Virus record (IMG/VR): IMGVR_UViG_3300045988_121070 | Source: a virus | DNA: 64,000 nt | Strand: one strand, 5' to 3' | Shown: in pieces, positions 17,777 through 63,232 of the stretch | Position numbering within the stretch: the stretch's first letter is position 1 | How the letters are laid out: each line of letters begins with the position of its first letter | The notes under the pieces: model-generated | Databases searched by the model: none | Seen by the model: only the letters and a program-made list of their open reading frames with translations | What the model was told of the DNA's origin: nothing | Position numbers and translations under genes: made by a program

Positions 17777-18549
17777 ATCTAAGATTATATTTGTTATTTT
17801 GGCGCAAAATTAAAGATAAACTTTGATTTTACAAAATAAAATACCAATTATTTTCTGATTTGATATAAGTTTTAACACTTCCGAGGGAGATTTTTCCCTG
17901 AACGAGGAGATTTTCTTCCTTGAACTATCAAAATAACTTTTTGCAGCCCCATCCATCGGAACATGCAAGGTTGAAATTCGGGTAAAAAGTCGTGGAGAGT
18001 TACGGAAAGTTGTCAAAAAGACGTTTTGTTTTTCGTGTAAGTCGCTGATATTCATAGTGTTATTATGGTAAAAGTTATTTTACCACCTTTTTCTTCAAAC
18101 TTTAGCGCATACAGGAGAAAAATAGAAATTCAGAAATAACACTGAAAAGGAGCAAAACACGCCGCTTAACTGCTAACCCCGTTCCCCCACAACTTATTGA
18201 TACTCAAAGGAGAAAGCGGAGCTTTCGCTTTATTGCTCAATCACTTTTAGGGTGCGGGATTTTATTTTTTCTCCAAAAGAATTTTTCGCAAAATTAGGAT
18301 GAGGTATGCCAAAATAATGTCATTTTGACTTTTTGGAGGGAGAAAATGGGCGCGAGGTGCGGTAGATAGGGAGAAGTGAGGGAGAATGATGCCATCCTTG
18401 AAATTACTTTTGCCGTCACTGAGGGGTGCGGGGTGGATAGATAGACCCAGCCGAGAACGGCTGGGAGTGGCTGAAGAGTCCTGGCCGCTATGACATAGCG
18501 ACATACAGAACGGGAGCGGGAAAATAATTAGAAAATAGTGGCGAGAAAG

Positions 18550-18581
18550 TTTGCGTATGTCGCGGAAAATGATTATCTTTG
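18550..18581 (+). promoter_or_regulatory. Bacteroidota-type promoter (TTTG at 18550-18553, 20-nt spacer, TATCTTTG at 18574-18581)
   Basis: matches the -33 TTTG / -7 TAnnTTTG consensus and spacing. Confidence 0.45.
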
Positions 18582-18587
18582 CACCAT

Positions 18588-18727
18588 AGATTAAATTGGG
18601 GTAATATGCGCCTTTTGTCGCTATATGGAAGATAGCGGCGTTGCCGCTATGAATGATACCACCGTAGGTGCCCGCCAGTGACACCGACACTGACACAGCG
18701 CCCAGCCGAGAACGGCTGGGCTTTTTG
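18588..18727 (+). ncRNA. candidate small RNA (~140 nt) between the promoter and a hairpin-plus-T-run terminator
   Basis: no ORF longer than 9 codons; internal hairpin gtcgctat/atagcggc with a G.U pair; terminator cccagccgagaacggctggg + cttttt at 18701-18726. Confidence 0.35.
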
Positions 18728-18975
18728 ATTAGTAACGAGCCACAGGGAGAGTACGGAGAGGATATTACCAACAGAGCGCGGAGGTGGCGATACAATCGCC
18801 ACACAATAGACGAAACGGGGAGAGAGAATAATTGTAAAGAACGCCAGAAAGGGCGCGAGAGAGAATATTACCAACGGAGCGCAAGAGAGGATATTAGTAA
18901 AGGCGGTGGCCGTGCTTCACAGCACAGCCACCGAACGAAAGAATTACCGACAGAGCGGTAGTACAAGATGTATCT

Positions 18976-20229
18976 CTACTTAAAGCGGGAGAGGAGCAGG
19001 GTACTATTGGTACCACCGAAGCCGAAGGCGTTGCAGAGAATGGTCTGTAACGGGGTGATGGTTGGCGCTGTTGGAATGCGCAGAGCTGCTGCCGTCTCGT
19101 CAGGGTGCTGGAGGTTGATGTGAGGCGTTACGAATCCGCCTTGCATCTGTATCAGGGCATATACTACCTGGGACACGCCGGACATCCAGCATTCGTGGCC
19201 GGTGAGGGCCTTTGTGCTGATGACAAAGGGACGGCTATCACCATTTGCAGCGGCATAGCCACTACCTACGGAAAAGAGGCGGCGGATGGCTTCTGCCTCG
19301 GCGCGGTCGCCATCTGGGGTCGATGTGGCGTGAGCCATGATAGCGGAGATACCAGGACCCAGCGGAGAACCGCTGGGCACAGTGGCGGCAGACAGAGCGG
19401 CGAGCATAGAGCGGTAGATAGCATCAGCGGAGGGTGTTGCGAGGTCGGGACTGGTGGTGAAGCCGTAGCCTTTGACCGTGGCCAAGGGTTTGCGATTGCC
19501 CATAGCGGCATGGGCTGCTGTTTCGAGAATGACGCAGGCAGCACCACCAGAAGGCACGAGGCCGTCGCGGTCGCGGTCGAATGGTCGTGATGCAGCGGTG
19601 GGGTTGTCGGTGCGGTGACTGAAGATGCCGAGCGCATCAAAGGAGGTATAGGCATGTAGGCCCACTTCCTGAGCGCCCACCACTATGCAGCAGTCGAGTT
19701 TGCCGGACTGGATAAGCGAATGAGCGAGACCGATAGCATGACCGCCACCGGCGCAGGCTGCAGAGACGGTAAAGGAGAGACCACCGATGCCAAAGATAGA
19801 AGCCAGCGACATAGAGACCGAGCTGTTGAGTGTGCGGAACACCATGCCGGCACCGAGTCGGCGCGAGTCATGGTATTCAGCCATGATAGCCTCTGTCTCA
19901 GCGAGGGCACCAGCGGTGCTGTCATTGCTAACAATAAGTCCGCAGCGGTAGAGGTCGGCCACTGGAGCCATAGCAAGCGCTTCCTTCATGGCCATGTAGC
20001 CATATTCGCCTGGTTCGGAGAGAGTGATGCGCTGTGAGCGTCGCAATCCCTGAGCTTTGATGTCAGGACGCGGGACGATACCCGTGAGGGGTGACTGGTA
20101 GCCGTAGGCGGTACGCTCAGGATCGATGCCGATGCCACTCTTTCCGAGACGGAGAGACTGAGCCACCTCCTGAACGGACTGGCCGATGCAGGACCAGATG
20201 CCCATGCCCGTGATTACTGTGCGTCGCAT
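18976..20229 (-). CDS. fabF: beta-ketoacyl-ACP synthase I/II (FabF/FabB-like, Cys-His-His triad)
   Basis: VSAACAGGGHAIG (Cys), AHATSTPDGD (His), TKALTGHECW (His), NAFGFGGTNSTLL; in-frame hairpin element at 19358-19377 encodes PSGSPLG. Confidence 0.85.
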   Translation of the reverse strand: MRRTVITGMGIWSCIGQSVQEVAQSLRLGKSGIGIDPERTAYGYQSPLTGIVPRPDIKAQGLRRSQRITLSEPGEYGYMAMKEALAMAPVADLYRCGLIVSNDSTAGALAETEAIMAEYHDSRRLGAGMVFRTLNSSVSMSLASIFGIGGLSFTVSAACAGGGHAIGLAHSLIQSGKLDCCIVVGAQEVGLHAYTSFDALGIFSHRTDNPTAASRPFDRDRDGLVPSGGAACVILETAAHAAMGNRKPLATVKGYGFTTSPDLATPSADAIYRSMLAALSAATVPSGSPLGPGISAIMAHATSTPDGDRAEAEAIRRLFSVGSGYAAANGDSRPFVISTKALTGHECWMSGVSQVVYALIQMQGGFVTPHINLQHPDETAAALRIPTAPTITPLQTILCNAFGFGGTNSTLLLSRFK

Positions 20230-20477
20230 AGGCTGGGTTTTTGTTCGATGATAGAACGGATGAGGTCACGCAAGGTATGCGTGTTCTTTGCATTCGTCAT
20301 ATCGAGTTTGACGTTAAAGTTTGTTTCGCACATCATAATGAAGTCCACGATGTCGATAGAGTCGAGGTTGAGATCTTCGTGAAGATTGTCGTCGAGGTGA
20401 ATATCCTCGGCGGGAGGCATGTTGTCGAAATGGGCTGTCAGGAGCGCCACGATGCGAGGGAAAAGTTTTTCTTCCAT
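20214..20477 (-). CDS. acpP: acyl carrier protein
   Basis: 87 aa, acidic, LNLDSIDIVDFIMMCE (DSxD phosphopantetheine-Ser motif); 16-nt overlap with the ketosynthase start. Confidence 0.75.
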   Translation of the reverse strand: MEEKLFPRIVALLTAHFDNMPPAEDIHLDDNLHEDLNLDSIDIVDFIMMCETNFNVKLDMTNAKNTHTLRDLIRSIIEQKPSLCDAQ

Positions 20478-20508
20478 GATTTGATGAATTTATGAATTTA
20501 TGAATGAC

Positions 20509-43437: not shown

Positions 43438-45171
43438 ATGGGAGGACTACATGACATCAAGAAAAAGGACTGGGAGCGGCTGTTGAAAAAGAACGGCTTT
43501 GTGCTCGACAGGACTAACAAGCACCATGTGTGGAAGCACCCTGACGGGCGAACGATACCCGTGGCCAACAGTGGGGTAAATCCGTGCATCGCCAGGAGAA
43601 TGGTCAAAGAGTTCCATTTGGAGGGTGCGCCCTTTGGATGGAGTGACCGCATAGAGAACACCGAGTCTGAGACCAAAGCGAAACCTACGACGCAGTGGCA
43701 GGATCAGTTGCAAAAGGCTCAGGTGGCTCTTGCTGAAAAGGAGGAGAAGAGCCTACGCGACTGGGAGCAGCAGGCGCTGGAAGCATCGAAACGCTACGAG
43801 GAACAGCAGCGGGAGGAGAAACCCGCCGGAGAACCGACGGGAGTGGTAGCGAGCAAGGCGACAGCTACCAGCGGTGGAACCGCTGGACGCAGTGAGAACG
43901 AGGAAGCAGCGGCAGAGCCACTGCCTACGGAGAAGAGCAGCCGAGAGACTCCAGCAATGAAACGCGGAGAGGCTGCGATGGTATCAAAGCATACGGGACA
44001 GAATAACGACTTTACCTTAGAAAACTTATATATGAATGATCAGAGACTAAAGAAATTCCACGAGTACCTTTGTGCGGTTGTGGAGTATTATCAGCAGAAC
44101 AAATCGCTGAAGAATTTTTCGGCACTGGCAAAACAGTACCAAGTGAAAGCCATTACGCAGGAGCAGTTCTACCAGAGTAAGTTGGATGAATTGAAGCCTG
44201 GTCAGAAACCCGACCGTCAGACATCGGATAAGATACGCATGATGATGGCGGAGGAGGACTTAAAGCGCCGGCAGAACATGTTGGCATCGTTCCTGAAGGC
44301 TCAGGAAGAACAGGATGCCGAGGGTGGTGTGATAGAAGCTGCTGAGGTAAAGATGCCTACGTTGGCAGAACGCATAGACACCTTCGAGGCACGGTTTGAC
44401 TTGTTAGGTCCTGTGTTCTCCACTATCATCGGTGAGGTGTATGACCGTTTCCGCAAGGAGTTTGGTGAGTCAACGAGTGACCTATTAGGCAGAGACAGTG
44501 CATCGGTGCGTCTGGATCCATGGCCATACATGAAAGACTGGGCCGAGTGTGTGGAATTTGACCTGACAAAGATGGTCTTTGACAAAGCAGAGCCGGAAGA
44601 GGTCAAAGCACTGTTGCCTACATGGAATGAGAAGATACTGCATGGTTATCTGACCTGGTTGTATGGCGGCAAAGACGGAAGACAGTTGAAGTTGCACTTT
44701 GACGAGCGTGGCAATGATGGTGGCGACAATGAGCAGCTGATAGAGTTGCTGCGTGACCAGGGCCTGCTGGAGAACATGCTCTTTGTGAAGTTAGAGTCGT
44801 GGAAAGGTGTTGCGCTGTGTGCTGCTATCTATCAGGATGCACCCGACGTGCTGATGGTTATCAATGAGGACACGGTGAAGTTCTATACCATAGAGGATAA
44901 CATCTGGTATTCGGCAGGAGGTGACACTATTATCAATCCTGAAAACAACTTAGGCTTTGGCGGTTATGGCACCCGTACCATCGTGGGTAAGTGTCTGCGT
45001 CAGATGCTGAATGATGAGAACCACAAGGCGGCACTCATGGAGCAGAAGAACGTGACGAAGCCGATGCGTGGTAAGCTGATGAATGACATCAACCATTACC
45101 GTGACATCTGGAACATGTATCACGAGGAATGGGAGAAGAAACGTAACAGTACGATGCTGGACTTTGGATAA
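43438..45171 (+). CDS. HicA-like N-terminal domain fused to a ~500-aa unknown region
   Basis: DWERLLKKNGFVLDRTNKHHVWKHPDGRTIPVANSGVNPCIARRMVKEF fits the HicA/YcfA pattern; repeat-derived low-complexity insert at 43810-44000. Confidence 0.5.
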   Translation: MGGLHDIKKKDWERLLKKNGFVLDRTNKHHVWKHPDGRTIPVANSGVNPCIARRMVKEFHLEGAPFGWSDRIENTESETKAKPTTQWQDQLQKAQVALAEKEEKSLRDWEQQALEASKRYEEQQREEKPAGEPTGVVASKATATSGGTAGRSENEEAAAEPLPTEKSSRETPAMKRGEAAMVSKHTGQNNDFTLENLYMNDQRLKKFHEYLCAVVEYYQQNKSLKNFSALAKQYQVKAITQEQFYQSKLDELKPGQKPDRQTSDKIRMMMAEEDLKRRQNMLASFLKAQEEQDAEGGVIEAAEVKMPTLAERIDTFEARFDLLGPVFSTIIGEVYDRFRKEFGESTSDLLGRDSASVRLDPWPYMKDWAECVEFDLTKMVFDKAEPEEVKALLPTWNEKILHGYLTWLYGGKDGRQLKLHFDERGNDGGDNEQLIELLRDQGLLENMLFVKLESWKGVALCAAIYQDAPDVLMVINEDTVKFYTIEDNIWYSAGGDTIINPENNLGFGGYGTRTIVGKCLRQMLNDENHKAALMEQKNVTKPMRGKLMNDINHYRDIWNMYHEEWEKKRNSTMLDFG

Positions 45172-48076: not shown

Positions 48077-48110
48077 ACGAAACAAGAATAATTCATAAAT
48101 TCATTAAGTT

Positions 48111-49542: not shown

Positions 49543-49809
49543 ATGGGAAAGATAAATTTCAGTATCGCTATTGAGATACCAAACACGATAAGTCAGACTA
49601 TCTTTAACCTCGATGTGGTAGAAGCATGTCGAAAACTAAAAACAGGCGATGTGCTCTATGAACTGCGCGAGAAAAAACTACATCCTAATGGCGAACGTAG
49701 AAGCTGCAAGGGCGCTTTTGTAATGAGCGGTCAGATGCTTTGTCAGGACACAGATGGGTGGTGGCATAGACTAACAAAGGAACATTATCAAGAAATCATC
49801 AATTCATAG
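49543..49809 (+). CDS. hypothetical protein
   Basis: 88-aa ORF. Confidence 0.45.
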   Translation: MGKINFSIAIEIPNTISQTIFNLDVVEACRKLKTGDVLYELREKKLHPNGERRSCKGAFVMSGQMLCQDTDGWWHRLTKEHYQEIINS

Positions 49810-49816
49810 ATATATT

Positions 49817-50319: not shown

Positions 50320-50703
50320 ATGAACGGATTTGCTTACTATAACCCCAATCCAAAAGGGCTTACAAACGCTTACGACTGTGTAGTACGAGCCTACACTTAC
50401 TTCTTTGGTGTTACATGGCACAAGGCTTTTTTCGATGCTATAAATTGGTGCGCCGAAAGAGGACTGGTAAGATGGAATTTTCCCAGCATCTACACACAAT
50501 ATCTGAAAGACAAAGGATATCAGCGTCACAGAGCGCCCAGAAAGGGCATAACGGTAGGACAATTCCGTGATGAGTTTGCAGACATAAATAAGACTTATAT
50601 CATATCAGGACCACATCATCTAACTATTATTGCCAAAAAGGACATTCTGGACTTAGGAGATTGCTCTGATATGGTGATGTTCGCATATTGGGAAAGACAA
50701 TAA
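50320..50703 (+). CDS. hypothetical protein (possible papain-like Cys-His fold)
   Basis: 127 aa; NAYDCVVRA ... GPHHLTII ... D pattern only. Confidence 0.4.
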   Translation: MNGFAYYNPNPKGLTNAYDCVVRAYTYFFGVTWHKAFFDAINWCAERGLVRWNFPSIYTQYLKDKGYQRHRAPRKGITVGQFRDEFADINKTYIISGPHHLTIIAKKDILDLGDCSDMVMFAYWERQ

Positions 50704-50722
50704 TTCATAAATTCATCAAATT

Positions 50723-55604: not shown

Positions 55605-55834
55605 GGCTATAATTGCTTTGATTACTGAGGCAAAGGTAGGGAGAATGGGCGAGAACATGGGGACAAAGAAGGAGACGGCGATGGAATTGCCGAGCAAGAG
55701 ACGAAGCGAGACCCAGCGCTAAAGCGCGGGGCATAGAACGAAAAGCCCCACCGAGAACGGCGGGGAGTAGTGGAGGGGTTCATGGTCGCTATGGCATAGC
55801 GACATGCCAAACAAAGGGGTAAAAAAGCGTAACT

Positions 55835-57304
55835 TCAGGGCAGGCGGTACTGGATTTTAGAGCGGGGGAAGTATTTGCGCACAAGAGAAAACCAGAAGTC
55901 CTGATAGATGCCTTTGGCGATGGTGTTGCCCTGGTCGTCGGTGGTAGGTTCTATCTGGTCGAAGATTTCCTTGCCGGCGAGGGCGACGGTGAGTGTGTGA
56001 GTTTCTTCGTCGTAGCGCTCGATGTTGATCTGACGAGCGCGGAGAGGGGTCTGTGCGCTGAGTTCCTGCATCAGCGAACGCCACCTACTTTCTGCCTGCT
56101 GCTGGACGAAGAGGTCGTACTGACGTTTGCGCTCTACCTCCAAACGGCGAGCCTCGTTGGTCTTATTCTTGACCCATGTCTGCAGGAGGGTGAGGACATA
56201 TTCGGCTACATGGTCTGGCTGTGTCTTCTCCACCTGGCGGCGCACATCATCATAGGCATAGTTGCAGAAGTCGTCGAGCCAGTCGTCAGCAACATCTTTA
56301 GCCACTTCGAGGAGGTCATAGGCATGGAGGTCGGACCACTGACGAGTAAGGGCATTGATGAGTGCCTGTATCTGGTTGTGGCGCTTGCGTTCCTGTTCGC
56401 GTTCGATGCCGAGGGCACCAGGGACAATGACAAACTCGATATGGGTAGGATTTCCCTTTTTGCGCCCATCCTTATAGAGCGGTTCGTAGGTGAAAGAGAA
56501 GTCTATTTTGCGGTCAGCAGAGAACGTATCCATTTCGGCCTTAGAAGGATCGAGAATGAGTTTCTTGACCTTTGAAAACTTATGGAAAGGATTGTCGGTA
56601 GGTTTGACATCGGGCTTCTCGGCCTTATGAGTGGCGACATAGGTAGCATCGTCGATGCCGAGAAATTCGCAGAGTTCGGGGTACTCCACCTCGTTACGTC
56701 CTTTGTACTTGAAGGTGGAGAGATAGATATAGATGCGCGGTGTGCGCTGTTTCTTAGAGAACTGGGCTATGCGGGCGATATGGTCAGTATAGCCACGATC
56801 CATAGAGAGGAAATCGTTGACATTCTCCTTATCCATCTTGACACGGATTTTGCCGGTGCGCCAGCCATTATCAGAGGTAGGCATTTCGATGCGAGAGAAG
56901 AGCGAGGCGAAGACATAGACGGTCTTATTGCCCTTTTTCTTCGGGTAGCCTATCTTCATGCTTACGAGGTCGCCGAGTGCCTGAGCCAGTTCGGGATAGT
57001 GGCCAGGAGTAACACCCAGGTCACGAGCCTCGATCTCGAAGTCAACGGAGGTATTCATTTCCTCTGGTGCAAATAGAGGAAGCCAGAGCTGCTGGTTTTT
57101 TTGGTGTTCGGAGGCAGAATAGGCGATGCGGTCCTGCAACTTTTCGAGTACACCCATGAGGACGCGCTGGTGCATGAGGGAGAAGTCGCCTGCCACCTGA
57201 GCATAGACTTTTGGATTGTAGATCCATTTCTGGTCGCGGAGTTCGCGGATGATGCTATTGTCAGACTTGATGAGCTGCTGCATCTTATCAGTTTTCTTTG
57301 CCAT
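55835..57304 (-). CDS. plasmid-type replication initiator (Rep_3-like, two winged-helix halves)
   Basis: DFSLMHQRVLMGVLEKL ... FEIEARDLGVTPGHYPELAQALGDLVSMKI ... RIYIYLSTF...ELCEFLGI; iterons directly upstream. Confidence 0.6.
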   Translation of the reverse strand: MAKKTDKMQQLIKSDNSIIRELRDQKWIYNPKVYAQVAGDFSLMHQRVLMGVLEKLQDRIAYSASEHQKNQQLWLPLFAPEEMNTSVDFEIEARDLGVTPGHYPELAQALGDLVSMKIGYPKKKGNKTVYVFASLFSRIEMPTSDNGWRTGKIRVKMDKENVNDFLSMDRGYTDHIARIAQFSKKQRTPRIYIYLSTFKYKGRNEVEYPELCEFLGIDDATYVATHKAEKPDVKPTDNPFHKFSKVKKLILDPSKAEMDTFSADRKIDFSFTYEPLYKDGRKKGNPTHIEFVIVPGALGIEREQERKRHNQIQALINALTRQWSDLHAYDLLEVAKDVADDWLDDFCNYAYDDVRRQVEKTQPDHVAEYVLTLLQTWVKNKTNEARRLEVERKRQYDLFVQQQAESRWRSLMQELSAQTPLRARQINIERYDEETHTLTVALAGKEIFDQIEPTTDDQGNTIAKGIYQDFWFSLVRKYFPRSKIQYRLP

Positions 57305-57305
57305 A

Positions 57306-57747
57306 GTTACGAAGATTTACCCCTTAAATGACTGGTTGCTATGACACAGCAACATGCACGGACGGGGGAGAGTTACGGAAAATGACCCCTTACGGAAGAG
57401 TTGCGATGGTAGCACAACATAGAGAACAACTGGGAGAGAGTTACGGAAAATGACCCCTAACGAAGAGAGTGGCCGGAAATGCACCCCACCGTTACCAGGA
57501 ACAGCCCCAAGGTTACGGAGAATGCCACCGAAGGCTACGGAGAAATACCCCACCGAAACGGCAGAAAGCCAGTATTTACGGGGGTTGCGAGCCAATGGAG
57601 GGCGCAGGTAATTATATATTCTTATAATCATATAAAAGAAAATTTATCAATACTATATAATAAATAAAGATATATATCAAGTTTAGGGGTAAAAAAGCGT
57701 AACCCTATGGGGATAAGGAACGTAATTTAGGGGTAAAAAAGCGTAAC
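57306..57747. promoter_or_regulatory. iteron-type replication origin: five direct GTTACG-N7-ACCCC-like repeats, a 76-bp AT-rich block, two inverted copies
   Basis: direct copies at 57306, 57372, 57440, 57512, 57534; AT-rich 57608-57683; inverted ggggtaaaaaagcgtaac at 57686-57703 and 57730-57747; an eighth copy at 55816-55833. Confidence 0.6.
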
Positions 57748-57763
57748 CTATACCCCACCCCAC

Positions 57764-58108
57764 TCAGACGGGATGCCGTTCGCAATACTCCTGAATGGCC
57801 TGTGCCACGATGTCGCCGATGGAGGTACGCTGTCCGGCAAAATACTTCATGCGGTTCAGTTTCTCATAGATTGAGAGCGGTACACGCGTCTGGACGTTCT
57901 TCAGCGGTTCGGTGTTGAGCGTGGAGAAAACACCGACGGAGGTGCCCGATGCTGACGCAGTGGGAGCGGGGGCAGCGGGAGAACCACTTGGAGCGGGTTC
58001 GGCAGACTCAGCACGGACGGAGGACATGATCTGCTCGTGTTCCTCGATAGCGGGGGAACCGGCAACGATGGACTTCTTAGAAGTCTTTTTGAATGATTTG
58101 ACAGCCAT
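57764..58108 (-). CDS. ribbon-helix-helix (ParG/CopG-like) partition or repressor protein
   Basis: C-terminal ...RVPLSIYEKLNRMKYFAGQRTSIGDIVAQAIQEYCERH; disordered N-terminus partly encoded by a hairpin-element-like segment (PSGSPAAP); directly downstream of parA. Confidence 0.5.
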   Translation of the reverse strand: MAVKSFKKTSKKSIVAGSPAIEEHEQIMSSVRAESAEPAPSGSPAAPAPTASASGTSVGVFSTLNTEPLKNVQTRVPLSIYEKLNRMKYFAGQRTSIGDIVAQAIQEYCERHPV

Positions 58109-58110
58109 AA

Positions 58111-58974
58111 TTATTCGGGATTTTGGGTTTTGATGAGTTCGGAAACGAAGTCGCGGTAGTCGTGAGAGGCGGTACATTCGGGGGCATAGGTGAAGATATC
58201 CTCATGCTGGAACTGGCTTTCGCCTACCTTGACACACTGACGTATGCGCGTCTTAAAGATAGTGGTGTCGTACTGGTCGCGGAGGTAGTCGGTAGTCTCA
58301 CGAGCCAGTCGGGTGCGCTCGTCGGCCATGACAATGAGCAAGCCCCGCATATCGAGGTCGGCATTGAGTTTGCGCTTGACATTCTTGTAGGCTTCGACCA
58401 TGCGGCCAATGCCATCGACTGAGAGCGAGCCGAGCTGCACGGGGATGATGACACCAGAGGCGGCAGCGAGCGCGTTGAAGGTGAGTTCGGAGAGTGCGGG
58501 GGCACAATCGATAAGCACATAGTCGAAGGTGTCTTCAATGTATTCGCCATCGAGTGCCTTTGCACCGAGGTAGAGGTGGTCCATGTCGAAGATGTCATTG
58601 CCAAAGAGTGACGAGAGCACCAGCTTGGACTGCATCTGACGATGGAGGTCAGGGTCGATGTCGGACAGTCCAGCAGAGGCAGGGACATAATAGAGACCCT
58701 TGCGAGACTGATAGACAGGCAGGTGGTTGTTGTCGCCATCGCGGAGCGCATCGGCTACGGTGAGAGTGGTGAGGTTCTTAGCGTGGTACTCCTTCATCTT
58801 ATCGCGCCAGCCGAGGAGGGAAGAAAGATTGCCCTGCGGGTCGAGATCGATGCAGAGAATGCGCAGACGGCTGTTGCGCCGAAGAAGACCGGCAGCGACG
58901 TTCTGAACGGTGGTGGTTTTGGCTACCCCACCCTTGTTGTTGGCGAATGCCAGGATTTCTTTAATACGTGCCAT
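58111..58974 (-). CDS. parA: ParA/Soj-family partition ATPase
   Basis: deviant Walker A NNKGGVAKTTT, LLVLIDCAP-like DYVLIDCAPAL; -7 box TAACTTTG (plus-strand caaagtta, 59003-59010). Confidence 0.85.
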   Translation of the reverse strand: MARIKEILAFANNKGGVAKTTTVQNVAAGLLRRNSRLRILCIDLDPQGNLSSLLGWRDKMKEYHAKNLTTLTVADALRDGDNNHLPVYQSRKGLYYVPASAGLSDIDPDLHRQMQSKLVLSSLFGNDIFDMDHLYLGAKALDGEYIEDTFDYVLIDCAPALSELTFNALAAASGVIIPVQLGSLSVDGIGRMVEAYKNVKRKLNADLDMRGLLIVMADERTRLARETTDYLRDQYDTTIFKTRIRQCVKVGESQFQHEDIFTYAPECTASHDYRDFVSELIKTQNPE

Positions 58975-59050
58975 AATGATTTGTTTTTTAGTATTTCTGT
59001 TGCAAAGTTAATCTTTAATTTTGAATTGACAAAATAAAATTGTTATTATT

Positions 59051-59106
59051 TTATGAATTTATGAATATATGAATGTATGAATTGATGAAATTATGAAATT
59101 TTGTGA
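59051..59106. repeat. seven tandem 8-bp units (TTATGAAT-like) upstream of parA; candidate centromere or operator
   Basis: ttatgaat ttatgaat atatgaat gtatgaat tgatgaaa ttatgaaa ttttgtga. Confidence 0.6.
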
Positions 59107-59957: not shown

Positions 59958-60005
59958 TGAATGATGATTTGATGAATTGATGAAATTTGTGATTTGGTAG
60001 GGTGG

Positions 60006-61640
60006 CTATACGCGGAGGGTGCCGGCTATGAGGGGCAGACAGAAGACGGCAGCACCCAGGACTACTGCACCAAAACAACAGAGGACTGCAGCACAGGCGA
60101 CAGTGGCGAGGACTGCGGCGGTGGTGCTATGGTGAGGAGTGGCGGGTTCCTCGGTGGGAGAACCACCGAGCGCTGTGGTAGGAGCGGCTTCTTCGTCAGA
60201 GGCGGCAGGGGTAGCGGGGGCGGGAGCTTCGTCGGAGAAGAGAGAGGGGGCGAGCCAGGCTTCTTCCTCTTCGTCATCGGTGGCGATAGTATCGCCACAT
60301 ACGGGACAATCGGCGGGGGCTTCGTCAGAGGCGGAAGATAAGGGGTTATTTTCCGTAACATTGTCCCCTACCCCAGCCGAGAGCGGCTGAGAGGGAGCGA
60401 CGGCAGAGCCATCGCCTACGGAGGAAACAGGAGCGCCGGCAGAGGCTATAACACGATAGACCTTGGGGGTAATGTCGTTTGACAGACCCACCTCGATGGT
60501 GGCACCTGGATAGATGCCGAGGTCGTTGGCTGTCTTCTCTGAATAGAGGGAGGCGGAATGTACTTCGCGGTAGAGGAGGGTCACAGAGTCGAAGTAGGCC
60601 ACGGGTGTACGCTTGCCACTCTTTCCGACCGTCACCTCTATGCGGCGGCAGGTGGTGATGGCCTTAGCGGGTGCGAACTTATAAGCGATAGAGCCGTGAG
60701 GATGGTGTGCGGTGGCACCGAGGGCGCGGAAATAGTCATCGTGCATGATGCGGAAGACGATACCATCAACGGGAAAGTCGAAAGCGGCACGTTCTGCCTC
60801 GCGTTTCTCCAGGAGCTGTTGAACATCGTCGAGGGTGTGGGCGGTCCATACTTCTGGACGGTGGATGAAGCAAAGGCGGTGGAGGAAGTCGAACTTATGC
60901 CAGGGGTAGCCGAGCGGGGTGCAAGAAAACTGAATCTGACTGCTGATAGCGTCGTCGATATAGGCATCCCAGGGGATGAAGTCGAGCATGGCGAGGTCGA
61001 TAGCGTCTGGTACAGACTGGTTGCAGAGAGCGGAAGCTGCTGTGCGGCAATCGGTGTAACGAGTGGAAAGGAGGTGGAGGTTGCGCTTGCTGCAGACAAT
61101 TTCGCCACGTACCTCGATACGACCGGCGAGGGAGTAGGTGGCACCCGTCTCGCGGAGCTGCTGAGGGATGGAGGGGATGCAGAGGGCATGGGCGGTGATG
61201 TCCTGCCCTACCCTACCATCGCCACGAGTGGCGGCGCTGATGAGTTGGCCATCCTGATATACGAGAGAGCATGAAATGCCGTCGTACTTCCACATGGCTA
61301 CGAGCTTGTAACCGCCAGTGTGGTTGTCGCCGGTGAGGGCGTTCATGCGCTGGTTGGTCTTGTTGATCCATGAAGCAACCTTCTGAATGTCCTGAGCCTT
61401 CTGACAGGAGAGCATGGGGGTGCGGTGAGCGATACGGCCATTGCCATTGAGGTCGGAGCCTACCTGCTGGGTGGGACTGTCTGGGAGGATGTGTGAGGGA
61501 TTGAGGCGTTCGTACTGCTCGATCTGAGCGACGAGGGCATCAAACTCGGCATCGCTCACAACGGGAGCGGATGCGACGTAGTACATGTGGGAGTAGTAGT
61601 TGGCGCGGCCAACGGCGTTGATGTAATCTGAATGTGTCAT
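60006..61640 (-). CDS. ligA: NAD-dependent DNA ligase (adenylation + OB domains) with a non-canonical low-complexity, hydrophobic C-terminus
   Basis: Ia domain YYVASAPVVSDAEFDALVAQIE, adenylation Lys in MWKYDGIS; no HhH/BRCT recognisable; palindromic element at 60279-60389 is in frame. Confidence 0.8.
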   Translation of the reverse strand: MTHSDYINAVGRANYYSHMYYVASAPVVSDAEFDALVAQIEQYERLNPSHILPDSPTQQVGSDLNGNGRIAHRTPMLSCQKAQDIQKVASWINKTNQRMNALTGDNHTGGYKLVAMWKYDGISCSLVYQDGQLISAATRGDGRVGQDITAHALCIPSIPQQLRETGATYSLAGRIEVRGEIVCSKRNLHLLSTRYTDCRTAASALCNQSVPDAIDLAMLDFIPWDAYIDDAISSQIQFSCTPLGYPWHKFDFLHRLCFIHRPEVWTAHTLDDVQQLLEKREAERAAFDFPVDGIVFRIMHDDYFRALGATAHHPHGSIAYKFAPAKAITTCRRIEVTVGKSGKRTPVAYFDSVTLLYREVHSASLYSEKTANDLGIYPGATIEVGLSNDITPKVYRVIASAGAPVSSVGDGSAVAPSQPLSAGVGDNVTENNPLSSASDEAPADCPVCGDTIATDDEEEEAWLAPSLFSDEAPAPATPAASDEEAAPTTALGGSPTEEPATPHHSTTAAVLATVACAAVLCCFGAVVLGAAVFCLPLIAGTLRV

Positions 61641-62528: not shown

Positions 62529-62578
62529 AGTTGTATGTTTTAATGAATTGATGATTTGATGAATGTATGAATGAATAA

Positions 62579-62995: not shown

Positions 62996-63232
62996 ATTCT
63001 TTGTTTATTTGTGAGGGCTGACCCTCGGTTATACATATTGTTTATGTTTTACGTTGCAAAGATACGAATATATTTTGATACTACCAAATATTTTTCGAGA
63101 AAAATTTGATTTTTGGCGAAAATTTTTTGTTTTAGGGGAAATTTCCCGCTATTTTCCGCTATTTTCCGCTACGGTCGCTATGACATAGCGACATACGGAA
63201 CAGGCCCAGCCGAGAACGGCTGGGAGTGGTGG

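Follow-up and report, generated by a model that had tools for sequence, protein, structure and literature searches.

How does a tailed phage that carries both a plasmid-type initiator gene and a parA gene persist in its host? This question is raised by a 64,000-nt stretch of viral DNA (IMG/VR record IMGVR_UViG_3300045988_121070), referred to here as the window. An earlier sequence-only reading, whose coordinates were all re-derived correctly, had suggested that the element may persist as a low-copy plasmid prophage. The layout of the locus, an integrase search and an isolate contig support that suggestion, and from these we infer plasmid maintenance itself. We put the probability at roughly 0.7 that the element is a circular Prevotellaceae phage-plasmid of ~103 kb, with the segment from 55.7 to 60.4 kb as its plasmid-maintenance module. 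The features of this segment, together with a distant half-iteron, are as follows.

55746-55803, minus strand: palindrome GTCGCTATGGCATAGCGAC (55785-55803), then a terminator-like hairpin (55765-55746), closing the rep unit
55813-55835, minus strand: rep-distal iteron, directly after the rep stop codon
55835-57304, minus strand: rep, 489 aa, with WH1 and WH2, a long helical linker and a DnaA-domain-I-like C-terminus (about residues 406-489)
57304-57551, plus strand: rep-side iterons, three strong (57306, 57372, 57440) and two degenerate (57512, 57534)
57335-57353: palindrome GTTGCTATGACACAGCAAC, between iterons 1 and 2 and just upstream of rep; candidate operator
57608-57683: AT-rich block of 76 bp; candidate DNA-unwinding element
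57683-57749, minus strand: parA-side iterons, strong at 57686-57703 and 57730-57747, degenerate at 57709-57725
57764-58108, minus strand: gene of the ParA partner, 114 aa, downstream of parA in the operon
58111-58974, minus strand: parA, 287 aa, Soj-like, with a deviant Walker A box (KGGVAKT) and no N-terminal HTH domain
59003-59033, minus strand: parA-operon promoter of Bacteroidota type, TTTG-N19-TAACTTTG, 29 nt upstream of the parA ATG
59044-59106, minus strand: 8-bp array, 6-7 phased units reading (A/T)TTCATnA on this strand; candidate binding site of the partner, as operator or centromere
60339-60361 (core 60342-60359), minus strand: full iteron away from the origin, in the low-complexity 3' region of the NAD-ligase gene
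17995-18008, plus strand: half-iteron GAGAGTTACGGAAA, 14 nt, within a 1.2-kb non-coding region

The initiator and its iteron origin

Profile and structure searches of the 55835-57304 product, previously described as a Rep_3-like initiator, led to Rep_3/COG5527 and to no other family. By tblastn, Rep matched 'RepB family / replication initiation protein' genes of Prevotellaceae and Bacteroides plasmids (E ~1e-17), while Foldseek returned a Rep-protein WH1 domain (6h24; probability 0.99-1.0) and viral COG5527-type/replication-initiation proteins with E as low as 2e-19. Rep3_N was detected in 10 of 22 homologues, Rep3_C in 15 and DnaA_N in three; the window's own Rep matched Rep3_C at E = 0.005, which is under the Pfam threshold, and had no match in NCBIfam or PHROG. 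At the level of sequence profiles, its C-terminal domain resembles DnaA domain I (hmmsearch E = 9e-4 against 4tps_B; hhalign probability 91 %, E = 1e-6).

The iteron pattern GTTACGNNNNNNNMCCCC (GTTACG-N7-MCCCC), allowing at most one mismatch, has 10 matches in the window versus 1.25 ± 1.15 in shuffled sequence, and none of 100 shuffles reached 10. Seven strong iterons all lie within 55.8-60.4 kb and flank the AT-rich block beside the 489-aa gene. The five direct iterons reported on the rep side (57306-57551) were all recovered, those at 57306, 57372 and 57440 as exact plus-strand matches and those at 57512 and 57534 with one mismatch each; the first adjoins the rep start codon. Exact minus-strand matches at 57686, 57730 and 55816 correspond to the two inverted iterons and to the iteron just beyond the rep stop (55816-55833), the last of which is kept in lineages L002, L004, L009, L010, L012, L087 and L088. 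The two 23-bp copies at 57368-57390 and 57436-57458 are indeed identical (GAGAGTTACGGAAAATGACCCCT), 57682-57704 and 57726-57748 form a second identical pair, and the partial copy placed at 17993-18010 is the 14-nt half-iteron listed above. Two further sites had been overlooked, namely the degenerate iteron at 57709-57725 and the full minus-strand iteron at 60342-60359 in the ligase gene. The latter lies ~2.6 kb away from the origin, and across two lineages its 22-nt site differs at one position within indel-rich surroundings.

The low GC content expected of the 76-bp AT-rich block was borne out, the 100-nt interval that spans it (57600-57699) having a GC content of 23 % versus ~55 % around it, and ATATATAATTA is kept across lineages at its rep-side edge. 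Palindromes of the GCTATGNCATAGC family occur four times versus 0.2 expected, and the GTTGCTATGACACAGCAAC palindrome is maintained by paired changes in L001 and L007. No conserved DnaA box was found in the origins of eight lineages.

ParA, its partner and the TTCAT arrays

The parA assignment held: the deviant Walker A box lies in the context NNKGGVAKTT, and the protein matched AAA_31 (1.4e-36), CbiA, the PHROG ParA family phrog_164 (2e-49) and ParA_partition (5e-25), as well as the structures of Thermus thermophilus Soj (1wcv, 1e-33), delta (2oze) and ParF (4dzz, 8e-7). The small downstream gene, to which a ribbon-helix-helix (RHH)-like C-terminus had been ascribed, belongs to a family of 62 homologues with invariant blocks. 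These comprise a Lys-rich conserved N-terminal peptide (KKSIVAGSPA) and, after a variable disordered linker, a conserved C-terminal strand-helix-helix (KNVQTR...) modelled by AF2 with a pLDDT of 80-93. The RHH fold is weakly supported by the predicted secondary structure and by weak family matches to RHH_1 and ParG (Pfam ParG E = 0.18 in 1 of 29 members); neither a Foldseek search of solved structures nor hhalign against CopG gave a significant match.

The tandem 8-bp units first noted at 59051-59106 form an array that spans 59044-59106 and lies directly upstream of the parA promoter, which is itself kept in relatives and whose TTTG-N19-TAACTTTG pattern has seven matches in the window versus 0.56 expected. 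An array is found at the parA position also in L002, L004, L010 and L019. In L092 most boxes are inverted, with the 8-bp phase retained and the KNVQTR strand of the partner unchanged; L103 has ATGAAA units, again 8-bp phased, and more distant ParA modules likewise carry 8-bp phased arrays. The window holds about seven TTCAT arrays in all, and shorter ones also stand in front of other genes, 6-14 nt from the start codon; these all lie on the coding strand and mostly keep phase with the ATG. That such arrays are not unique to parA had previously been overlooked. Since they precede other genes, and since in L008 and L012 a short leader array of this kind is all that parA has, a dedicated centromere may not be what the boxes form. 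What remains of the proposed operator or centromere boxes is a conserved array for which a centromere role is plausible, but not exclusive.

Conservation, circular map and competing explanations

Dozens of independent assemblies share the layout of the module, and the order of iterons, AT-rich block, inverted iterons and rep is maintained from 98 % to 40 % Rep identity. Iteron sequence varies along with Rep (GTTACG-N7-ACCCC in the window, AGTTACCAYGTTTTACCAAAA in L092, TAGTTATAnnTTTTTACCCC in L091 and TAGTTGCnnnnTTTTACCCC in L090). No such change is seen in the TTCAT boxes or in the strand with which the partner is predicted to bind DNA. Close relatives joined end to end give a circular map of ~103.6 kb without host flanks; two contigs of ~102-104 kb are circular permutations of one another, and one of the two closes via a terminal repeat of ~80 nt. 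All contigs checked that carry the two end-of-window genes are 200 kb or shorter. No integrase had been visible in the window, and a search of the rest revealed no member of an integrase or recombinase family on the whole map. The anticipated stand-alone contig in a host assembly was found for a relative with 40 % Rep identity, not for this sequence: that relative makes up an entire contig of 90,283 nt in Prevotella sp. MGM1, a cultured isolate, and has parA, partner, ori and rep in the same order as the window, although a stand-alone contig in this draft assembly could also reflect a carrier-state infection. As a complete plasmid-style origin and a partition cassette coincide with no detectable integrase, this tailed phage (~103 kb) of gut and rumen Prevotella most likely persists as a low-copy plasmid rather than by chromosomal insertion.

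Many ORFs have no family assignment, including those for proteins of 871, 873, 842 and 642 aa, so that an unrecognised recombinase is conceivable. Integration by such an enzyme, or a linear N15-like plasmid, with Rep and Par being auxiliary in either case, is nevertheless very improbable, given that no contig among dozens of assemblies has host flanks, that assemblies are circularly permuted with one self-closing, and that resolvase and protelomerase families, like integrases, gave no match. We give even less credence to a passenger module, whether a captured plasmid fragment or a plasmid-phage misassembly, without part in the phage life cycle. The nearest annotated Rep relatives lie on Bacteroidales plasmids and Rep has no match among GenBank phages, as a passenger would predict, but more than 20 independent assemblies, obtained from human gut, rumen and an isolate, have a 272-aa gene, parA, partner, ori and rep in the same order among phage genes. 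Iterons also vary with Rep, outlying iterons are conserved within a phage gene, a search of 72,556 plasmids gave no match to the partner protein, and TTCAT boxes are common to the region upstream of parA and to other phage genes.

A strictly virulent or carrier-state phage, whose Rep-iteron locus would be the vegetative origin and whose ParA and partner would position replicating genomes or regulate early genes, is unlikely, but accounts for several observations. No CI/Cro-type switch or integrase was identified, the sole candidate for a repressor or immunity switch being an HTH_3 protein of 144 aa from a relative; the phage has its own helicase-primase (1215 aa), clamp and ligase, as originally noted, together with ThyX and dCTP deaminase; contig names from some samples give cov 151 and cov 74, consistent with active replication; and TTCAT boxes lie ahead of several genes, as for a regulator. 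However, a ParA/partner cassette under a host-type promoter is a hallmark of stable inheritance at low copy, the module is maintained in lineages with 40 to 98 % Rep identity, a relative is carried as a stand-alone contig in the genome of a cultured isolate, and outlying iterons typify copy-number restraint and would be superfluous for a lytic origin. We favour the phage-plasmid reading, and consider the element a new phage-plasmid lineage of Prevotellaceae, some parts of which are unusual.

Proposed mechanism and comparison with known systems

In such a phage-plasmid, Rep monomers would bind through WH1-WH2 to the oppositely oriented iterons around the AT-rich block, causing it to open, and the DnaA-domain-I-like C-terminus may directly recruit the replicative helicase, either host DnaB or the phage helicase-primase. 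Initiation would need no host DnaA boxes and would be followed by theta replication with host polymerase and the phage clamp and ligase. Copy number may be controlled by Rep occupying the iteron that adjoins its own start codon and coupling the origin iterons to the conserved outlying pair, at 55.8 and 60.3 kb, while a separate regulator may work at the GCTATGNCATAGC palindromes. For segregation, the Soj-like ParA would work with the 114-aa partner, whose C-terminal strand-helix-helix on the TTCAT boxes by the parA promoter would provide autoregulation and centromere function, and whose Lys-rich peptide at the N-terminus would stimulate ATP hydrolysis by ParA.

The element resembles P1 (known generally and from PMC10983915) in being a tailed phage of ~90-100 kb without an integrase, in having an iteron-binding initiator with iterons both beside and beyond rep (RepA, incC/incA in P1) and a ParA-driven partition cassette (ParA-ParB-parS in P1), and in its separate phage replication genes, which suggest a second replication mode. 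There is no sequence relationship, window DNA and Rep being unmatched in 50,697 phage records. Moreover, the window ParA is small and Soj-like with a 114-aa partner, whereas P1 has a type Ia ParA and an HTH ParB; the window has iterons of opposite orientation on the two sides of its AT-rich block, and its origin lacks DnaA boxes while its Rep has the DnaA-domain-I-like C-terminus. Bacteroidales plasmids encode Rep_3/COG5527 initiators, such as the 411-aa 'replication initiation protein' of Segatella copri plasmid NZ_CP137558.1, which share with the phage Rep the host family and WH1-WH2 homology (residues ~6-300; 25-29 % identity, E ~1e-17). Detected similarity ends at about residue 300-324, beyond which the phage Rep continues with its helical linker and DnaA-domain-I-like module.

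The partition cassette is arranged like the type Ib ParF-ParG-parH system of TP228, in that a small Walker ATPase precedes a small protein whose N-terminal tail is flexible and whose C-terminal part has a DNA-binding fold. PMC3130281 describes a centromere/operator 5' of the operon, a short degenerate box array with AT-rich spacers, to which the upstream array of short boxes is similar. Unlike TP228, the 287-aa window ParA is nearer to Soj (1e-33) than to ParF (8e-7), its partner has no significant similarity to ParG, and its boxes are TTCAT, with similar arrays ahead of other genes too. The delta-omega system of pSM19035 (Inc18) likewise has a Soj-like ParA of ~290 aa (delta, matched as 2oze). 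Its small RHH partner, omega, recognises short tandem repeats in several promoters and doubles as a centromere-binding protein and a global regulator, a model that the multiple TTCAT arrays of the window would suit. The repeat period is 8 bp rather than 7 bp, however, the partner has no sequence similarity to omega, and most secondary arrays lie in leaders in start-codon phase and in one orientation, which to our knowledge is not the case for omega sites.

Within Bacteroidota, crAssphage (Carjivirus communis) has been proposed as an extrachromosomal phage-plasmid with plasmid-like replication genes (PMC10983915; PMC7969092). It shares with the present phage its host phylum and the lack of an integrase, but is a different type of virus; the window phage is long-tailed, as judged by its 1938-aa tape-measure protein, has Prevotellaceae as its host family, and carries an explicit iteron origin and ParA cassette.

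Layout and conservation of the replication and partition module

The segment that a sequence-only reading had described as a plasmid-style maintenance module, at 55816-59106, very probably (about 0.9) represents a genuine plasmid-type replication and partition module, and the coordinates, iterons, AT-rich block and array reported for it were all confirmed. Every gene of the module lies on the minus strand, and its features are arranged in the following order.

Features of the module, in the direction of transcription
59106-59044, minus strand: 8-bp phased TTCAT array
59033-59003, minus strand: Bacteroidota-type promoter TTTG-N19-TAACTTTG for parA
58974-58111, minus strand: parA, 287 aa
58108-57764, minus strand: partner gene, 114 aa
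57749-57683: parA-side iterons, two identical 23-nt copies and one degenerate copy
57683-57608: AT-rich block of 76 bp; the enclosing 100-nt stretch is 23 % GC
57551-57304: rep-side iterons, three strong and two degenerate, in the orientation opposite to the parA-side set, the last abutting the rep ATG
57304-55835, minus strand: rep, 489 aa
55835-55813: rep-distal iteron, directly past the rep stop codon
past the rep-distal iteron, before the hairpin: 19-bp palindrome
55765-55746: terminator-like hairpin, after the 19-bp palindrome

The motif GTTACG-N7-MCCCC occurs at ten sites with at most one mismatch in the window versus 1.25 expected, and a position-weight scan returned seven sites scoring 28-31 bits, every one of them within 55.8-60.4 kb. 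The iterons listed earlier are real, including two pairs of identical 23-mers, but that inventory had overlooked the seventh strong site, a full iteron at 60342-60359 within the ligase gene, and what had been called a partial copy near 18.0 kb is present as a 14-nt half-site. Direct repeats of ~18-23 bp beside the initiator gene, together with an AT-rich stretch, are the arrangement that characterizes Rep_3-type iterons.

Comparison with twelve IMG/VR loci at 60-98 % Rep identity, and with loci from MAGs and isolates down to 40 %, revealed a common layout in which the partner stop codon is followed by 2-4 iterons, the AT-rich block, 3-6 inverted iterons and the rep ATG. The edge of the AT-rich block, ATATATAATTA, is conserved across relatives, the inverted rep-side iterons of relatives are frequently spaced 21-22 bp apart, and the iteron sequence itself varies in step with Rep divergence.

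Iteron forms among relatives
GTTACG-N7-ACCCC: lineage of the window, down to ~59 % Rep identity
AGTTACCAYGTTTTACCAAAA: L092, the phage contig of Prevotella sp. MGM1
TAGTTATAnnTTTTTACCCC: related locus L091
TAGTTGCnnnnTTTTACCCC: related locus L090

The rep-distal iteron is kept in seven loci from several diverged Rep lineages. The iteron inside the NAD-ligase gene (60339-60361, minus strand) sits in its low-complexity 3' part and differs at only 1 of 22 positions across two lineages, inside a stretch that is otherwise indel-rich and poorly conserved, a pattern that points to selection acting on the site as DNA. Outlying copies are what pairing-based copy-number control, as in P1, F and RK2, depends on, and the ligase-internal site possibly has a role in iteron pairing or copy control.

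Two further non-coding elements were observed in the window. The 13-bp palindrome GCTATGNCATAGC is present in four copies versus 0.2 expected, all intergenic (18487-18499, 55788-55800, 57338-57350 and 63177-63189), one copy separating the first and second iterons upstream of rep and another following closely after the rep-distal iteron; it is preserved by paired changes in the related loci L001 and L007, and is a candidate operator for a dimeric regulator. Separately, a non-coding region of ~1.2 kb (17800-18975) between a ketoacyl-synthase gene and a primase-related (PriCT_2) cluster contains two identical 20-nt hairpins CCCAGCCGAGAACGGCTGGG, three ATTACCAACAGAGCG repeats, two matches to the Bacteroidota-type promoter, one GCTATGACATAGC palindrome and two half-iterons. 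The region may serve as a second (lytic) origin or in control, and Rfam gave no match there or elsewhere in the window.

The Rep initiator and its C-terminal module

Searched on its own, Rep gave no Rep3_N match in Pfam, a match to Rep3_C (PF21205) below the 21.1-bit cut-off (E = 0.005, 17.5 bits), and nothing useful in PHROGs, NCBIfam or, using phmmer, the PDB. Its family was more informative: among 22 aligned homologues, Rep3_N (PF01051, WH1) was matched by 10 (best E = 7e-6) and Rep3_C (WH2) by 15 (best E = 1.7e-6). Rep also matched 38 Bacteroidales plasmids by tblastn (25-29 % identity, E ~1e-17) in genes annotated as RepB-family or replication initiation proteins, an example being a 411-aa protein from a Segatella copri plasmid. 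The AF2 model of Rep (mean pLDDT 81.5) found its best PDB match in the WH1 domain of the Rep protein 6h24 (probability 0.99-1.0) and matched DNA replication, replication-initiation and COG5527 proteins in the viral structure library BFVD with E-values down to 2e-19. Since the plasmid matches, the Pfam matches in homologues and both sets of structural matches agree, the N-terminal 300 residues of Rep belong with the WH1-WH2 iteron initiators of the Rep_3/COG5527 type, in line with the Rep_3-like initiator proposed from the sequence.

Past the winged-helix domains, Rep continues with a 50-residue helix and then a compact helix/strand module of ~80 residues (residues ~400-489; 55838-56107, minus strand). 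The Rep family profile matched domain I of B. subtilis DnaA (4tps_B, residues 9-84) with E = 9e-4, and hhalign aligned the C-terminal module to DnaA domain I with 91 % probability (E = 1e-6), the similarity extending over the whole length of the ~75-residue reference domain (Pfam DnaA_N, PF11638). DnaA_N was matched by 3 of the 22 homologues (best E = 4e-6), and the predicted order of helices and strands is compatible with DnaA domain I; single-sequence searches using the C-terminal domain alone were uninformative, with 1 and 3 matches. By these profile comparisons, the module resembles DnaA domain I. W408, which is nearly invariant in the Rep family, aligns with a tryptophan close to the N-terminal end of the B. 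subtilis domain. None of the papers covered by a limited literature search describes a protein with the Rep_3-DnaA_N architecture.

DnaA boxes in the origin are typical of the Rep_3/COG5527 family, without strictly defining it. The origin in the window contains one copy with one mismatch, which is part of a degenerate iteron; none was found in the origins of seven related lineages, such that no conserved box is present in any of the eight. The sequence TTATCCCCA at 57708 was rejected as a DnaA box because it belongs to a degenerate iteron and is missing in relatives. One mechanism we propose is that the DnaA-domain-I-like module of Rep would stand in for host DnaA in bringing the helicase to the origin.

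ParA, its partner protein and the TTCAT arrays

The 287-aa ParA carries the deviant Walker A box KGGVAKT at residues 14-20, as had been noted for parA, and has no extra N-terminal helix-turn-helix (HTH) domain. Its best solved relative is Thermus Soj (1wcv, 1e-33), and the delta protein of pSM19035 and ParF were also matched. A length of ~200-300 aa, a deviant Walker A box and the lack of an N-terminal HTH are the features of type Ib ParA proteins, and the partner gene lies directly downstream of parA, as expected for that type.

The partner protein has 62 homologues. Among them the N-terminal peptide, rich in Lys, is invariant (KKSIVAGSPA..EHE), the low-complexity linker in the middle varies, and the C-terminus is conserved (KNVQTRIPLS.YEKLNRMKY...SIGDIV.QAI.EY). 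The AF2 model of residues 70-111 consists of an extended segment and two helices (pLDDT 80-93), and the family gave weak Pfam matches to RHH_1 (E = 0.004 in 1 of 29 sequences), DUF6290 (3 of 29) and ParG (E = 0.18). The gene position agrees with the ribbon-helix-helix (RHH)-like small protein proposed earlier, and the homology searches give weak hints of that fold; Foldseek and profile searches against the PDB gave no significant match, and hhalign against CopG gave none. Nothing significant was found by tblastn against plasmids. An RHH fold of the C-terminus of the partner is a likely but putative assignment.

The array of 8-bp units that had been placed near the parA promoter is present at 59106-59044, immediately upstream of the -33 element of the host-type promoter, and an equivalent array occupies the same position at parA in four related loci (L002, L004, L010 and L019). 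Most boxes of the MGM1 phage contig are inverted, so that the coding strand reads ATGAA, yet they keep the 8-bp phase, the promoter stays in place and the partner retains an identical KNVQTR strand; phased units of the form ATGAAA occur in L103, a ParA module that is more distant. As the boxes can be flipped yet stay in phase with an unchanged KNVQTR strand, and phased units recur in L103, the comparison favours the parA array as a candidate DNA-level operator or centromere. TP228 parH is a comparable operator/centromere array (PMC3130281).

About six further genes of the window, and many in relatives including L004, L010, L012, L008 and L019, are preceded by a shorter array of 2-5 phased 8-nt units, (A/T)TTCATnA, at a distance of 6-14 nt from the start codon.

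Leader arrays in the window
20480-20505, minus strand
48091-48110, plus strand
49794-49816, plus strand
50703-50722, plus strand
59960-59990, minus strand
62530-62575, minus strand

These leader arrays are invariably on the coding strand (the antisense control gave 0), and the ATG usually keeps their phase, taking the place of the next TCAT core. The structural-gene loci L023 and L024 contain none, and in L008 and L012 parA carries a leader array only. As arrays were found at other gene starts, the notion of the parA array as a unique centromere was downgraded; a DNA-level role for the parA copy is still likely, given that in the MGM1 contig the array at the parA promoter is flipped and remains phased. 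The leader arrays may act on RNA, in translation, or they may be DNA-level operators that give the partner many sites, as the omega model would have it.

A circular phage genome in Prevotellaceae

Phage genes in the window include those for a prohead protease, a 1938-aa tape-measure protein, a clamp, a ligase and methyltransferases. Two contigs from close relatives, one of 101,861 nt and one of 103,711 nt, are circularly permuted versions of one another; the 103,711-nt contig has a terminal repeat of ~80 nt (79/80 identical), and its two ends map adjacent to each other on the 101,861-nt contig. The genome map is thus a circle of ~103.6 kb without host DNA. This circle further encodes a holin, an amidase, tail proteins, an HTH_3 protein and a diversity-generating-type reverse transcriptase. 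One replicon therefore carries both phage structural genes and genes for plasmid replication and partition, the combination by which phage-plasmids are recognized. An assembly chimera was rejected because the synteny repeats in many independent assemblies.

No integrase, resolvase, recombinase or protelomerase family was found in the precomputed Pfam assignments for the window genes or in PHROG and Pfam scans of the remaining circle, many ORFs of both being without a family; the earlier remark that no integrase is visible thus extends around the whole circle. Contigs bearing the two end-of-window genes are all at most 200 kb, and no host-flanked contig was seen among the assemblies with these genes or with Rep relatives. 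Rep relatives of at least 40 % identity come from Prevotellaceae MAGs and the cultured Prevotella sp. MGM1, on contigs of 90-104 kb in five of six cases and on a 25-kb fragment in the other. In the MGM1 draft genome (BEWV01) the relative occupies the whole of Contig204, 90,283 nt long, a record identical to an IMG/VR viral contig on which a homologue of the tail region is found too, and this contig carries the same Rep/Par cassette. The search of host assemblies suggested in the sequence-only reading thus yielded a stand-alone contig, which, though short of proof of plasmid maintenance, is the strongest indication so far that growing cells carry the element. Taken together, these data support the earlier interpretation of the module, and the phage probably persists as a plasmid prophage.

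Other genes of this phage group were also observed. A 144-aa HTH_3 (Cro/CI-type) protein encoded outside the window, downstream of the holin/lysis genes (related locus L064, 18159-18593), is the only candidate immunity regulator on the circular map. The 448-aa reverse transcriptase (phrog_1423, 2e-62; L023, 18791-20137) is encoded among tail-protein genes at a locus ~8 kb left of the window start in relatives, which suggests a diversity-generating retroelement whose target is a receptor-binding or tail gene. An unusual auxiliary gene pair directly follows the tape-measure gene downstream and encodes a ketoacyl synthase (18976-20229, minus strand) and an acyl-carrier-like protein (PP-binding; 20214-20477, minus strand), of which the latter has a 4-unit TTCAT leader array. 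A 577-aa protein (43438-45171, plus strand) is HicA-toxin-like over its first ~60 residues (phrog_353, 3e-7; weak Pfam HicA_toxin), is far longer than normal HicA proteins, and could have an addiction or defence function.

Significance and comparison with known systems

Prevotella and Segatella are dominant genera in the rumen and in many human guts, but to our knowledge little has been learned about their plasmids and temperate phages. If real, a conserved lineage of 100-kb phage-plasmids would explain how integrase-less phages persist in these genera. We also know of few replicative vectors for these hosts, for which rep, the iterons, parA, the partner gene and the array make up a compact candidate replicon of ~3.5-4.7 kb. 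A Rep-DnaA-domain-I fusion at a DnaA-box-free origin offers a handle on how iteron initiators recruit the helicase, and the module is relevant to biologists of both gut phages and plasmids.

Phage-plasmids are an established kind of element, and the concept is not new. In Bacteroidota, crAssphage has been proposed to be one (PMC10983915, PMC7969092), and Bacteroides-type phage-plasmid clades are probably under-detected (PMC7969092). What appears to be new is a ~100-kb long-tailed lineage in Prevotellaceae of the human gut and rumen, a Rep whose C-terminal module resembles DnaA domain I and whose origin is free of DnaA boxes, a family of partner proteins for which no curated model exists, and phased TTCAT arrays; a limited literature search found no published description of the lineage, the Rep fusion, the partner family or the arrays. 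Our joint reading, which is tentative and as a whole rather unlikely to hold in every part, is of a widespread, undescribed Prevotellaceae phage-plasmid family with a self-sufficient initiator and a dual-role partner. The initiator would consist of a Rep_3 winged-helix core fused to a DnaA-domain-I module that takes over helicase recruitment from host DnaA and makes DnaA boxes dispensable. The partner, for which omega of pSM19035 serves as the model, would be a global regulator reading TTCAT arrays at the parA promoter and at phage gene leaders, and would so couple partition to the control of phage gene expression. No sequence relative was found among known phage-plasmid groups, and GenBank phages gave no DNA or Rep-protein match. 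The likeness to the maintenance region of P1 is one of function, with different parts here: a Rep_3-type initiator, a type Ib-like ParA and a small partner protein.
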